From Escherichia coli (GTDB lineage Bacteria > Pseudomonadota > Gammaproteobacteria > Enterobacterales > Enterobacteriaceae), in NCBI RefSeq assembly GCF_044324785.1, contig NZ_CP172127.1: 64,000 nucleotides of DNA. The stretch is one strand, 5' to 3'. The notes beneath the pieces were generated by a model. The model searched no databases, was not told the origin of the DNA, and worked only from the letters and a program-made list of their open reading frames with translations. The translations under genes were made by a program, and so were the position numbers. Of the stretch, positions 18,651 through 54,564 are shown in pieces; positions within the stretch are counted from its first letter, which is position 1, and every line of letters begins with the position of its first letter.

Positions 18651-18666
18651 TTTTTCTGTTCATCAT

Positions 18667-18691
18667 CTTGCCGTGCAGCTGGCACGGCAAG
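18667..18691 (+). other. Perfect 10-bp-stem hairpin 3' of purC (cttgccgtgc-agctg-gcacggcaag) with no U-tract
   Basis: Perfect inverted repeat 16 bp after the purC stop; no T-run follows on either strand, so it is not a canonical intrinsic terminator. Confidence 0.4.
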
Positions 18692-18817
18692 ACAACCGCT
18701 CTCGGAAGATGTGCATTGAACGCTCATTCCTCCGCCATTTCATCCCGCTTTCCTGTGGTAATCTTCCTCTGAACCACCTACGATCATTTCTATAATGAAT
18801 ATATTGTTGAGGTATCT

Positions 18818-24743: not shown

Positions 24744-24766
24744 AAGAACCTGCTGAGCAGGTTCTT
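24744..24766 (+). other. 10-bp-stem hairpin downstream of ypfM (aagaacctgc-tga-gcaggttctt), no U-tract
   Basis: Perfect inverted repeat; precedes the terminator at 24784-24812. Confidence 0.4.
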
Positions 24767-39453: not shown

Positions 39454-39487
39454 CGCTTACCCTGAATATTCAGGGTAAGCGGTTTTC
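39454..39487 (+). terminator. Intrinsic terminator of maeB
   Basis: Near-perfect palindrome cgcttaccctgaata/tattcagggtaagcg followed by TTTT. Confidence 0.8.
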
Positions 39488-50017: not shown

Positions 50018-51379
50018 ATGAAACTAAAGACCACATTGTTCGGCAATGTATATCAGTTTAAGGATGTAAAAGAGGTGCTGGCTAAAGCCAACGAACTGCG
50101 TTCGGGGGATGTGCTGGCGGGCGTTGCAGCGGCAAGCTCACAAGAGCGCGTGGCGGCAAAGCAGGTGTTGTCGGAAATGACCGTAGCGGACATCCGCAAT
50201 AATCCGGTGATTGCCTATGAAGATGACTGCGTGACGCGGCTGATTCAGGACGACGTTAACGAAACGGCCTACAACCAGATTAAAAACTGGAGCATCAGCG
50301 AACTGCGTGAGTATGTGCTGAGCGATGAAACCAGCGTGGACGACATTGCCTTTACCCGCAAAGGGCTGACCTCGGAAGTGGTCGCGGCGGTAGCGAAGAT
50401 TTGCTCCAACGCGGACCTGATCTACGGCGCGAAGAAAATGCCGGTAATCAAAAAGGCCAATACCACCATCGGTATTCCGGGCACCTTTAGCGCCCGTTTG
50501 CAGCCAAATGACACCCGTGACGACGTGCAAAGTATCGCCGCGCAAATCTACGAAGGGCTTTCCTTCGGGGTGGGCGATGCGGTGATCGGCGTTAACCCGG
50601 TGACTGACGATGTGGAAAACTTAAGCCGCGTGTTGGACACCATTTACGGCGTGATCGACAAATTCAACATTCCGACCCAGGGCTGCGTGCTGGCGCACGT
50701 CACCACCCAGATTGAAGCGATCCGTCGTGGCGCACCAGGCGGGCTGATTTTCCAGAGTATCTGCGGCAGCGAAAAAGGGCTGAAAGAATTTGGCGTGGAG
50801 CTGGCGATGCTCGATGAAGCACGCGCAGTGGGCGCGGAGTTCAACCGTATCGCCGGGGAAAACTGCCTCTACTTCGAAACCGGACAAGGCTCTGCGCTGT
50901 CCGCTGGCGCTAACTTCGGCGCAGACCAGGTGACGATGGAAGCACGTAACTATGGGCTGGCGCGTCATTACGATCCGTTTATCGTCAACACCGTGGTCGG
51001 CTTTATTGGGCCGGAGTATCTCTACAACGACCGCCAGATTATCCGTGCGGGCTTAGAAGATCACTTTATGGGTAAGCTGAGCGGCATCTCTATGGGCTGT
51101 GACTGCTGCTACACCAACCACGCTGACGCTGACCAGAACCTCAACGAAAACCTCATGATCCTGCTCGCCACCGCAGGCTGCAACTACATCATGGGGATGC
51201 CGCTGGGTGATGACATCATGCTCAACTACCAGACCACCGCCTTCCACGATACTGCCACTGTGCGTCAGTTACTCAACCTGCGCCCGTCACCGGAGTTTGA
51301 ACGCTGGCTGGAAAGCATGGGCATTATGGCAAACGGTCGCCTGACCAAACGGGCGGGCGATCCGTCACTGTTCTTCTGA
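50018..51379 (+). CDS. eutB: Ethanolamine ammonia-lyase large subunit EutB
   Basis: 453 aa; begins 11 bp after eutA with no inserted DNA. Confidence 0.96.
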   Translation: MKLKTTLFGNVYQFKDVKEVLAKANELRSGDVLAGVAAASSQERVAAKQVLSEMTVADIRNNPVIAYEDDCVTRLIQDDVNETAYNQIKNWSISELREYVLSDETSVDDIAFTRKGLTSEVVAAVAKICSNADLIYGAKKMPVIKKANTTIGIPGTFSARLQPNDTRDDVQSIAAQIYEGLSFGVGDAVIGVNPVTDDVENLSRVLDTIYGVIDKFNIPTQGCVLAHVTTQIEAIRRGAPGGLIFQSICGSEKGLKEFGVELAMLDEARAVGAEFNRIAGENCLYFETGQGSALSAGANFGADQVTMEARNYGLARHYDPFIVNTVVGFIGPEYLYNDRQIIRAGLEDHFMGKLSGISMGCDCCYTNHADADQNLNENLMILLATAGCNYIMGMPLGDDIMLNYQTTAFHDTATVRQLLNLRPSPEFERWLESMGIMANGRLTKRAGDPSLFF

Positions 51380-51399: not shown

Positions 51400-52284
51400 A
51401 TGGATCAAAAACAGATTGAAGAAATTGTACGCAGCGTGATGGCGTCAATGGGACAAGCGGCCCCCGCGCCGTCAGAAGCAAAGTGCGCCACCACCTATGC
51501 GGCACCGGTGACCTCGGAAAGCTGCGCGCTGGATTTAGGCTCTGCGGAAGCAAAAGCGTGGATTGGCGTTGAAAACCCGCATCGCGCAGACGTATTAACA
51601 GAACTGCGTCGCAGCACCGTGGCCCGCGTTTGTACCGGTCGTGCCGGTCCGCGTCCGCGTACCCAGGCGTTGCTGCGTTTCCTGGCCGATCACTCTCGTT
51701 CGAAAGATACCGTACTGAAAGAAGTGCCGGAAGAGTGGGTGAAAGCGCAGGGCTTGCTGGAAGTCCGCTCTGAAATTAGCGACAAAAATCTCTACCTGAC
51801 TCGTCCGGATATGGGCCGCCGCCTGTGTGCAGAAGCTGTTGAAGCGCTGAAAGCACAGTGTGTTGCTAATCCGGACGTGCAGGTCGTTATTTCTGATGGC
51901 CTGTCAACTGATGCGATCACCGTGAACTACGAAGAGATCCTGCCGCCGCTGATGGCGGGCCTGAAACAGGCCGGGCTGAAAGTCGGTACACCATTCTTTG
52001 TTCGTTATGGTCGCGTGAAGATTGAAGATCAGATCGGTGAGATCCTCGGCGCGAAAGTGGTGATCCTGCTGGTGGGGGAACGCCCGGGATTAGGGCAGTC
52101 AGAAAGCCTCTCCTGCTACGCCGTTTACTCGCCGCGTATGGCAACCACCGTTGAGGCCGATCGCACCTGCATCTCTAACATTCACCAGGGCGGCACGCCG
52201 CCGGTTGAAGCCGCAGCCGTCATTGTGGATTTGGCGAAACGTATGCTGGAGCAGAAAGCATCCGGCATCAACATGACCCGATAA
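51400..52284 (+). CDS. eutC: Ethanolamine ammonia-lyase small subunit EutC
   Basis: 294 aa matching E. coli EutC. Confidence 0.95.
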
Positions 52285-52293
52285 GGAGGCATC

Positions 52294-52953
52294 ATGCCAG
52301 CTTTAGATTTGATTCGACCGTCGGTAACCGCCATGCGGGTGATTGCCTCCGTTAACGCCGAATTTGCGCGTGAACTGAAATTGCCGCCGCATATTCGTAG
52401 CCTCGGGCTGATTTCTGCTGATTCCGATGACGTCACCTACATTGCGGCTGACGAAGCGACCAAGCAGGCGATGGTGGAAGTGGTGTATGGACGCTCGCTG
52501 TATGCGGGAGCCGCACACGGCCCGTCACCGACTGCCGGTGAAGTGCTGATTATGCTTGGTGGGCCAAACCCGGCGGAAGTGCGTGCTGGTCTGGATGCGA
52601 TGGTTGCGCATATTGAAAATGGCGCGGCTTTCCAGTGGGCTAATGACGCAGAAAACACAGCCTTCCTGGCACATGTAGTTTCGCGTACCGGTTCTTATCT
52701 CTCATCAACCGCCGGGATCACGCTTGGCGATCCGATGGCGTATCTGGTGGCACCGCCGCTGGAAGCGACCTATGGCATTGATGCAGCCCTGAAATCTGCC
52801 GACGTGCAACTGGTGACCTACGTACCGCCGCCGTCTGAAACCAACTACTCGGCAGCATTTTTAACCGGTAGCCAGGCCGCGTGTAAAGCAGCCTGTAACG
52901 CCTTTACCGATGCAGTGCTGGAAATCGCGCGTAATCCAATCCAGCGTGCGTAA
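52294..52953 (+). CDS. eutL: Microcompartment shell protein EutL (tandem BMC domains)
   Basis: 219 aa matching E. coli EutL. Confidence 0.95.
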
Positions 52954-52965
52954 CGGAGGTTGCCG

Positions 52966-53466
52966 ATGATCAATGCACTGGGATTGCTGGAAGTGGACGG
53001 CATGGTCGCCGCGATAGATGCTGCGGATGCCATGCTCAAAGCAGCTAACGTTCGTCTGCTCAGTCACGAAGTGCTTGACCCTGGTCGCCTAACGCTGGTG
53101 GTGGAAGGCGATCTGGCGGCGTGTCGTGCGGCGCTGGACGCAGGTTGTGCTGCCGCGATGCGTACCGGGCGTGTCATCAGCCGTAAGGAGATCGGTCGGC
53201 CAGACGATGACACCCAGTGGCTGGTTACTGGCTTTAACCGCCAGCCGAAGCAACCCGTAAAGGAACCCGACGCGCCAGTTATCGTCGCGGAATCTGCTGA
53301 CGAGTTGTTGGCGCTGTTAACATCAGTACGTCAGGGAATGACGGCAGGAGAAGTGGCTGCCCACTTTGGCTGGCCGCTGGAAAAAGCCAGAAATGCGCTC
53401 GAACAGCTCTTTTCTGCCGGGACGTTACGTAAACGCAGTAGTCGTTATCGTCTCAAGCCCCATTAA
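52966..53466 (+). CDS. eutK: Microcompartment shell protein EutK (BMC domain plus C-terminal helix-turn-helix-like tail)
   Basis: 166 aa from ATG 52966 (ACGGAGG RBS); the ORF track starts 2 codons earlier at TTG. Confidence 0.93.
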   Translation: MINALGLLEVDGMVAAIDAADAMLKAANVRLLSHEVLDPGRLTLVVEGDLAACRAALDAGCAAAMRTGRVISRKEIGRPDDDTQWLVTGFNRQPKQPVKEPDAPVIVAESADELLALLTSVRQGMTAGEVAAHFGWPLEKARNALEQLFSAGTLRKRSSRYRLKPH

Positions 53467-53478
53467 CCTGTCGGAGGT

Positions 53479-53502
53479 GCCGGGTGTCCTACAACACCCG
53501 GC
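53479..53502 (+). other. 9-bp-stem hairpin (gccgggtgt-cctaca-acacccggc) between eutK and eutR
   Basis: Perfect inverted repeat 12 bp after the eutK stop and 10 bp before the eutR ATG; no U-tract. Confidence 0.4.
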
Positions 53503-53511
53503 ATTAACATC

Positions 53512-54564
53512 ATGAAAAAGACCCGTACAGCCAATTTGCACCATCTTTATCATGAACCCTTACCCGAAAACCTGAAGCTCACGCCGAAGGTCGAAGTGGA
53601 TAATGTTCATCAACGACAGACAACGGATGTCTATGAACATGCTTTGACAATTACCGCCTGGCAGCAGATTTACGATCAGCTGCATCCGGGCAAGTTTCAT
53701 GGTGAATTTACGGAAATTCTACTCGATGATATTCAGGTTTTTCGTGAATACACCGGTCTGGCGCTGCGTCAGTCGTGCCTGGTCTGGCCGAACTCGTTCT
53801 GGTTTGGCATTCCGGCGACGCGCGGTGAGCAGGGATTTATCGGTTCGCAATGTCTGGGAAGTGCAGAAATAGCCACGCGGCCTGGCGGCACTGAGTTTGA
53901 ATTGAGTACGCCGGACGATTACACCATCCTTGGCGTGGTGCTTTCTGAAGATGTCATTACCCGGCAGGCTAACTTTTTGCATAACCCGGAGCGGGTGTTG
54001 CATATGTTGCGTCACCAGTCGGCGCTGGAAGTGAAAGAGCAGCATAAAGCCGCGCTGTGGGGCTTTGTCCAACAGGCGCTGGCGACGTTTTGCGAGAACC
54101 CGGAAAATCTCCATCAGCCTGCAGTGCGAAAAGTGTTGGGGGATAATTTGCTCATGGCGATGGGGGCGATGCTGGAAGAAGCGCAACCAATGGTGACGGC
54201 GGAAAGCATCAGTCATCAGAGTTACCGTAGATTACTTTCCCGCGCCCGTGAATATGTGCTGGAAAATATGTCTGAGCCGGTGACGGTGCTGGACTTGTGT
54301 AATCAACTGCATGTCAGTCGCCGCACGCTACAAAACGCGTTTCACGCTATTTTAGGCATTGGCCCGAACGCGTGGCTGAAACGCATTCGCCTGAACGCCG
54401 TACGCCGCGAACTGATAAGCCCGTGGTCGCAAAGCACAACGGTAAAAGACGCCGCCATGCAGTGGGGATTCTGGCATCTGGGGCAATTCGCCACGGATTA
54501 CCAGCAGCTGTTTGCCGAGAAGCCGTCACTGACGCTGCATCAGCGGATGCGGGAATGGGGGTGA
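53512..54564 (+). CDS. eutR: AraC-family transcriptional activator EutR
   Basis: 350 aa with a C-terminal AraC-type HTH; last gene of the eut cluster. Confidence 0.94.

Follow-up and report, generated by a model that had tools for sequence, protein, structure and literature searches.

The gap between eutK and eutR at the 3' end of the Escherichia coli eut operon, 45 nt long, is filled by a hairpin (HP1) and its flanks. HP1 is not a chance palindrome but a real RNA structure under selection, and it lies within the translation initiation region of eutR. Comparison of orthologous sequences indicates that it has been retained through compensating base changes in at least eight enterobacterial genera. 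Our preferred explanation of the region is a split ribosome binding site together with a second hairpin that masks the AUG, and we put the probability that HP1 is the bridging hairpin of such a noncontiguous site for eutR at about 0.5.

The stretch of DNA that we examined, referred to here as the window, is 64 kb long and covers the 3' end of the eut operon. Genes were placed from open reading frames (ORFs) and a RefSeq record, and the features of the junction are collected in Table 1. The longest eutK ORF opens with a TTG at 52960, and the RefSeq start lies 6 nt further on. A 401-nt query around the junction found a match in 5419 of 5426 complete E. coli genomes, at 95 to 100% identity and with eutK and eutR annotated under it. 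The junction reads, in order, TAA cctgtc GGAGG TGCCGGGTGT cctaca ACACCCGGCA ttaacatc ATG.

Table 1. Genes and sequence features at the 3' end of the eut operon, in positions of the window.
Feature	Position	Strand	Basis or remark
eutB	50018-51379	+	ORFs and RefSeq
eutC	51400-52284	+	ORFs and RefSeq
eutL	52294-52953	+	ORFs and RefSeq
eutK	52966-53466	+	ORFs and RefSeq
eutR	53512-54564	+	ORFs and RefSeq
hemF, amiA		-	
eutK stop codon TAA	53464..53466	+	6 nt upstream of the Shine-Dalgarno (SD) sequence in all hairpin-bearing lineages
Linker CCTGTC, eutK stop to SD	53467..53472	+	nearly invariant in the alignment
GGAGG, distal SD	53473..53477	+	CGGAGG invariant in 26/26 aligned sequences; 16S duplex of -10 to -10.8 kcal/mol
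HP1 5' arm (TGCCGGGTGT)	53478..53487	+	inverted repeat and fold
HP1 loop CCTACA	53488..53493	+	sequence varies, stem kept
HP1 3' arm (ACACCCGGCA)	53494..53503	+	inverted repeat and fold; covaries with the 5' arm
A/U-rich single-stranded spacer (TTAACATC), HP1 to start codon	53504..53511	+	8-11 nt in all lineages
eutR start codon ATG	53512..53514	+	MKK... N terminus aligns from residue 1 in orthologues; PGAP annotation
HP2 5' arm (TCATGAAAAAGA), includes the start codon	53510..53521	+	
HP2 3' arm (TCTTTATCATGA), eutR codons 11-15	53544..53555	+	
CCGA, codons 18-19	53564..53567	+	tentative predicted partner of UCGG 53471-53474 (helix P0)

HP1 is a perfect 10-bp inverted repeat (100% complementary in an inverted-repeat search) closed by a 6-nt loop. 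On its own it folds with -19.2 kcal/mol and holds neither an SD sequence nor the AUG, and in a 76-nt context the fold reaches -25.9 kcal/mol (z = -3.87), with none of 200 dinucleotide shuffles as stable. A preliminary description of this DNA had reported a 9-bp hairpin near the ATG, which is accurate for the G+C-rich core at 53479-53487/53494-53502, the last base of which lies at -10 from the A of the ATG. The window contains four distinct perfect hairpins of at least 10 bp with loops of 3 to 8 nt, against 0.45 expected from shuffles. The other three (18666-18692, 24744-24766 and 39454-39481) are intergenic, and each follows closely on the 3' end of an ORF; they probably act as terminators or stabilisers, and GTTTTCC comes directly after the last of them.

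Within the species the element is fixed and single. It occurs at a median of one place per genome over 5389 E. coli genomes, and a covariance model found no second copy in the window. The 44-nt gap sequence reaches an identity of 99% or more in 5365 of the 5390 E. coli records, and a divergent lineage of the species departs from it at no more than three positions, two in the loop and one in the linker. Among Escherichia lineages the loop reads cctaca, catata, cgtaca or atgt while the stem is retained.

For a wider comparison, 18 EutR proteins were aligned, from which 78 loci were fetched from species-representative genomes, and 9 further loci were added by exact-protein look-up. About 31 distinct orthologous sequences carry a hairpin of 8 to 12 bp (-15 to -24 kcal/mol) at the equivalent position. 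The carriers are Escherichia, Citrobacter, Klebsiella, Salmonella (including S. enterica, in which eutR regulation was defined), Pseudocitrobacter, Pluralibacter sp., Phytobacter, Intestinirhabdus and one further enterobacterium. All share one layout, in which the eutK stop is followed by 6 nt, GGAGG (GGAGA once), 0 to 2 nt, the hairpin, an A-rich spacer of 8 to 11 nt and the start codon. The distance from stop to SD stays at 6 nt although the letters of the linker vary (cctgtc, cccgcc, tgaacc). The four letters before the start codon, CATC in E. coli, form a Dam site (GATC at -4 to -1) in most hairpin lineages outside Escherichia (loci L006-L042) and read GGTC, AATC or GATT in a few.

The stem hardly varies at its base, (G)CCGG/CCGG(C); higher up, the letters change and the pairing persists. 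The upper stem is TGT/ACA in E. coli, CGT/ACG in E. whittamii, GGGCTTC/GAAGCTT in the C. freundii group, GCGTCC/GGGCGT in Salmonella, AGCGT/ACGCT in K. grimontii and AAGTGC/GCGCTT in Pseudocitrobacter, while Phytobacter has GTCGG/CCGAC, a change inside the core itself. RNAalifold recovers the HP1 helix, and the stem has undergone at least six separate two-sided changes, with one position showing five pair types (U-A, C-G, G-U, A-U and G-C). In a covariance-model alignment 87.9% of the cells are paired, a value reached by none of 500 shuffles and to be compared with 35 to 64% when the partners are slid. Since stem lengths differ between lineages, both this alignment and one made with MAFFT misregister the top of the stem (its top three pairs in the covariance-model alignment), which inflates the number of cells counted as not paired there, and we therefore recounted the pairs anchored on the invariant CCGG core. 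In this count, the five variable positions above the core form standard pairs in 91.9% of cases, compared to 70.7 +/- 2.4% with shuffled partners (maximum 79.2% over 2000 shuffles); the sequences are phylogenetically related, so that all these shuffle figures overstate independence and are not probabilities.

The structure under selection can also be assigned to a strand. G-U pairs make up 39 of 345 pairs, and the fold of the + strand is more stable than that of its complement in 21 of 30 sequences, with means of -21.2 and -17.2 kcal/mol. This asymmetry points to the RNA of the eutR sense strand as the selected structure, and a structure of the minus strand or at the DNA level was rejected on the same grounds. 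An extreme case is Intestinirhabdus alba (locus L029, 1408-1500), in which the stem has grown to 77 nt with 30 bp and -48 kcal/mol. GGAGG still adjoins the stem there and 9 nt still separate the stem from the ATG, with an SD-AUG distance of 86 nt in linear sequence and an effective one of 9 nt.

The position of the SD gives HP1 its likely meaning. The 18 nt before the E. coli ATG offer the 3' end of 16S rRNA no duplex better than -1.7 kcal/mol, and the preliminary description was thus right that an SD is missing just upstream of eutR. The distal GGAGG(U) forms a duplex of -10.8 kcal/mol with the same 16S end. The same division is found across the hairpin lineages, with best anti-SD duplexes of -0.9 to -3.4 kcal/mol in the proximal 18 nt, where none has an SD, and of -6.6 to -10.8 kcal/mol at the distal site. 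For a split translation initiation region the linear distance from SD to start has to exceed about 15 nt, which is too long for direct use. In E. coli it is 34 nt, and falls to an effective 8 to 10 nt when HP1 is folded; in the hairpin lineages (about 30) it is 34 to 38 nt, and 8 to 11 nt (13 nt once) with the hairpin left out. GGAGG had also been noted in the preliminary description, as lying partly 5' of the stem. Its last G is indeed at -35, but the motif lies entirely 5' of the perfect stem, though two G-U pairs with it are possible.

Orthologues that lack the hairpin provide the complementary observation. All 21 of them, among which are Buttiauxella, Hafnia, Morganella, Brenneria, Dickeya, Pectobacterium and Lonsdalea, have a proximal SD-like sequence, with duplexes of -3.9 to -12.7 kcal/mol. 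Brenneria, Lonsdalea and Pectobacterium have GGAGG, 9 nt and ATG, the spacing of E. coli with the hairpin folded out. In every eutR that we examined, an SD or SD-like sequence is therefore found no more than about 11 nt (13 nt once) from the start, either contiguously or across the hairpin.

The start codon itself lies in a second predicted hairpin, HP2, in which TCATGAAAAAGA pairs with TCTTTATCATGA at 11 of 12 positions. HP2 folds with -9.7 kcal/mol (z = -3.6), and the best fold of the 126-nt region, HP2 included, reaches -35.7 kcal/mol (z = -4.8). Thermodynamic ensembles predict the AUG to be paired with a probability of about 1.0 in 32 of 34 sequences. HP2 is predicted in nearly all hairpin-bearing lineages and is not predicted in most hairpin-less ones; a K. 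pneumoniae-like lineage (L081) has lost it, and in L083/strain ESL0689 it is weaker. Both of its arms are invariant, so covariation cannot be assessed, and the conservation of the 3' arm extends to synonymous sites. Codons 10 to 15 are the least synonymously variable six-codon window of eutR, with a minor-codon fraction of 0.03 against a gene mean of 0.30, and codons 10 to 21 are the least variable twelve-codon window (0.07). A third helix, P0, may close a three-way junction around HP1 and HP2 through 4 bp between UCGG at 53471-53474 and the CCGA of codons 18 and 19, and would cover the first two Gs of the SD. Its sequence is conserved and codons 17 to 21 are synonymously constrained, with no covariation; we regard this predicted helix as tentative. 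Another long-range pairing, of CUGUCGG with codons 4 to 7, was rejected, being conserved in neither Citrobacter nor Klebsiella.

From these data we infer that the distal GGAGG is the working SD of eutR, that folding of HP1 is needed for it to act and that HP2 lowers the output. The only SD for eutR would lie 34 nt upstream of the AUG, too far for direct action, and folding of HP1 would join the two ends at the base of its stem and bring the SD to an effective 8 to 10 nt from the AUG. The start codon would then be within reach of a 30S subunit bound at the SD, and the stem-loop would stick out from the platform side of the subunit. The AUG would be held with codons 11 to 15 in the weaker HP2 (about -10 kcal/mol), making initiation inefficient and reliant on the strong SD anchor, which would fit a regulator held at a low level. 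The preliminary description had proposed that structure controls eutR translation and keeps the regulator scarce. The first part is borne out in so far as HP1 is selected within the initiation region, although HP1 more likely enables the use of the distant GGAGG than blocks initiation. We favour the enabling role on sequence grounds, because HP1 contains neither the SD nor the AUG, the distances at the junction are fixed and hairpin-less orthologues have a contiguous SD. The second part has to be reassigned from HP1 to HP2, whose pairing with codons 11 to 15 and synonymous constraint make it plausible that it supports low EutR translation.

Several points count against a split ribosome binding site. 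Four more divergent lineages combine the hairpin with a proximal SD, and thermodynamic ensembles often pair the outer Gs of GGAGG, as described below for the rival explanations. The effective spacing of 8 to 11 nt, with the width of the helix added, is at the long end of the workable range, and the A-rich unstructured spacer at -8 to -1 together with the AAA and AAG of codons 2 and 3 could allow SD-independent initiation.

The closest precedents are genes of phage T4. A hairpin shortens the distance between SD and AUG from 22 to 5 nt in gene 38 and from 27 to 11 nt in gene 25, and mutations that destabilise it lower translation (Gold 1988; Nivinskas et al. 1999; Malys and Nivinskas 2009, as reviewed in PMC3014915 and PMC7297116). 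As in these genes, a stable hairpin in front of eutR lies wholly between a distant SD and the AUG, and its folding would yield a workable spacing. The location is intercistronic in both systems (26-25 in T4, eutK-eutR here), and in both the hairpin occurs in close relatives while distant ones without it have a contiguous site. Unlike the T4 genes, eutR is a chromosomal enterobacterial gene for a transcription activator, its hairpin is also present in some lineages with a proximal SD, its start codon sits in a predicted second hairpin, and the case for it comes from sequence and predicted folds. For the masking of the AUG, the coat gene of phage MS2 offers a parallel, in which, reportedly from the work of de Smit and van Duin, a hairpin that masks the start site is compensated by the SD. 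Like that gene, eutR would have its AUG in a stem of about -10 kcal/mol, with a strong SD that could hold the 30S subunit in place as long as this stem stays closed; unlike in MS2, HP2 is backed by conservation of its sequence and of synonymous sites. No description of the eutK-eutR hairpin was found in the literature that we searched.

Expression data from Salmonella bear on this region. The eut operon is transcribed from two promoters: P1, upstream of eutS, is activated by EutR, and P2, ahead of eutR, is weak and constitutive (PMC5821096). A Salmonella P2-eutR'-'lacZ translational fusion (-454 to +104) is expressed, and overproduction of CsrA, which recognises GGA motifs and often binds at the SD, lowers it (PMC10433801). 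The fused fragment spans the whole hairpin element, and its response to CsrA is consistent with a split ribosome binding site. P2 was not located in our analysis: a permissive hexamer scan of 53058-53520 gave only GTTACG-16-TATCGT (53424/53446), the -10 hexamer of which is not conserved in Citrobacter.

HP1 could instead be an intercistronic element of mRNA stability or processing, which we consider unlikely as the explanation of the region; a processing site had been the alternative offered in the preliminary description. It would either be a barrier that protects the eutS-eutK mRNA from 3'-5' exonucleases or mark a place in the A/U-rich spacer where RNase E cuts, with the result that the eutR segment is uncoupled and inactivated and less regulator is made relative to the structural genes. 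Intercistronic hairpins such as the REP elements between malE and malF are known to stabilise the upstream mRNA, and the eutK-eutR hairpin resembles these as a stable G+C-rich stem-loop between cistrons whose products are needed in greatly different amounts. It differs from them in being single-copy and at fixed distances from SD and AUG. A stable G+C-rich stem, a loop free to vary and a single-stranded A/U-rich stretch downstream suit such an element, and eutR mRNA is a substrate of RNase E in enterohaemorrhagic E. coli (EHEC) (PMC8565329). The hairpin is also retained where bridging is unnecessary. In four more divergent lineages (L031, L032, L085 and L086) a eutK-eutR gap of 40 to 50 nt contains a hairpin plus a proximal SD. 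Yokenella and the metagenomic lineage L086 have an SD on either side of the hairpin, another metagenomic lineage (L085) has the hairpin with the proximal SD only, and Entomohabitans has a proximal SD and a variant hairpin with GGAG in its loop. Retention despite a proximal SD in these four lineages implies that HP1 has some value apart from bridging. It probably has a further role, the natural candidate being to protect the upstream part of the operon mRNA or to insulate the two cistrons from each other, and a role of this kind is compatible with a split ribosome binding site. A decay barrier, however, needs no fixed distances, whereas the hairpin lies 0 to 2 nt from GGAGG and 8 to 11 nt from the AUG in about 31 lineages, including the one with the 77-nt stem. 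Nor would stability or processing explain the invariance of GGAGG and the proximal SD-like sequence in all hairpin-less orthologues.

A purely repressive fold, which we find quite improbable, would treat HP1 as a scaffold that holds EutR translation down. The 4-bp UCGG/CCGA helix, HP1 with its G-U extension and HP2 would form a closed three-helix structure that buries SD and AUG until it is opened, for example by a ribosome on eutK, by temperature or by a factor. The predicted burial of the AUG in HP2 and the placement of the most synonymously constrained windows of eutR within this fold speak for it. So does the predicted state of the SD in most species: the minimum-free-energy fold allows two added G-U pairs with the last two Gs of GGAGG, and thermodynamic ensembles often have the first two and the last two Gs paired, which would count against use of the motif as an SD. 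The pairing that would cover the SD, however, amounts to two G-U pairs plus a multiloop helix of 4 bp; it does not covary, and Phytobacter and strain ESL0689 lack it. HP1 itself contains neither SD nor AUG, a purely repressive hairpin would need no invariant SD at its 5' base, and HP2, with its invariant arms, is lost or weakened in the two lineages named above. Damping by HP2 is in any case already part of the split ribosome binding site as we describe it.

The invariant 6 nt between the eutK stop and the SD hint at coupling of termination to reinitiation, and a speculative extension, to which we assign a low probability, is that the junction acts as a bacterial 'shunt'. A ribosome ending at the eutK stop would be captured by GGAGG and handed across the hairpin to the AUG, so that, on induced P1 transcripts, EutR synthesis would be tied to translation of the shell protein EutK, while weak P2 transcripts would be mostly in the closed P0/HP1/HP2 fold and give a trickle of EutR. 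Ribosome shunting in plant pararetroviruses, as in the 35S leader of CaMV, is a eukaryotic scanning mechanism and serves as an analogy only: there too an upstream ORF ends shortly ahead of a strong stem, within a few nucleotides of its base, and initiation starts again directly downstream of that stem, whereas the hand-over at eutK-eutR would rest on SD-anti-SD pairing. If true, the shunt would place a translational layer on top of the known positive-feedback loop of eut.

GGAGG and the hairpin could also be a protein-binding site, occupied by CsrA at the GGA or by the helix-turn-helix C-terminal domain of EutK, which is encoded directly upstream; this we judge very unlikely. The EutK C-terminal domain has been described as suggestive of nucleotide binding (PMC5821096), and an EutK_C that ends in RKRSSRYR is encoded in all hairpin-bearing lineages. 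Buttiauxella, however, has the same EutK C terminus and no hairpin, and the free variation of loop and upper stem argues against sequence-specific recognition of the hairpin, as the G-U asymmetry does against a palindromic DNA operator. A CsrA-regulated leader is recognised by demonstrated binding and by at least two GGA motifs, of which one usually lies at the SD and another in the loop of a hairpin. The intergenic region contains a single GGA motif (53473-53475, at the SD) and none in the HP1 loop. The effect of CsrA may be mere occlusion of the SD, which would favour a split ribosome binding site.

That HP1 is a transcription terminator or attenuator, a dispersed repeat (REP/BIME) or a chance palindrome is hardly credible, because this G+C-rich hairpin at a gene end has no U-tract (it is followed by AUUAACAUC on the + strand and ACCUCCGAC on the - strand, so that an intrinsic terminator was rejected), is single-copy in E. 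coli genomes, matches no Rfam family at its gathering score (best 12 to 16 bits versus 37 to 42, E-values of 3.5 to 8.7) and is conserved with covariation. A scan of 52900-53700 for terminators and promoter patterns returned 0 sites, and since only 8 nt separate HP1 from the ATG, transcripts from P2 must read through it. A mini-ORF within the hairpin, from GTG 53484 to TAA 53507 (MSYNTRH*), was rejected too. In E. coli it has seven codons and a stop (GTG TCC TAC AAC ACC CGG CAT TAA), begins 6 nt after GGAGG and ends 4 nt before the eutR ATG. It is not conserved: the Salmonella hairpin has no ATG, GTG or TTG, and that of Citrobacter only a TTG in the loop, 13 nt from the SD.

The missing proximal SD probably misleads gene callers on the start of EutR, and thousands of EutR sequences in the databases begin at a spurious codon within the hairpin. 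The TTG in the hairpin loop gives rise to a 357-aa EutR call, found in a cluster of 2937 sequences, and other starts in the hairpin yield proteins of 356 and 359 aa (cases are L081 1501, L088 1501 and protein P0001). These N-terminal extensions are probably annotation artefacts, the likely cause being that no SD precedes the true ATG.

Ethanolamine use depends on a positive-feedback switch with a threshold set by EutR, which in EHEC, Salmonella and Citrobacter controls virulence genes as well (PMC5821096, PMC8565329). The low but inducible level of EutR has so far been discussed only in terms of P1, P2, an sRNA and RNase E, and a conserved, structured initiation region adds a translational control point. 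To our knowledge, split ribosome binding sites have been documented mainly in phage T4 so far. If eutR does have one, this textbook-rare design would be brought into a core chromosomal operon of enteric bacteria.
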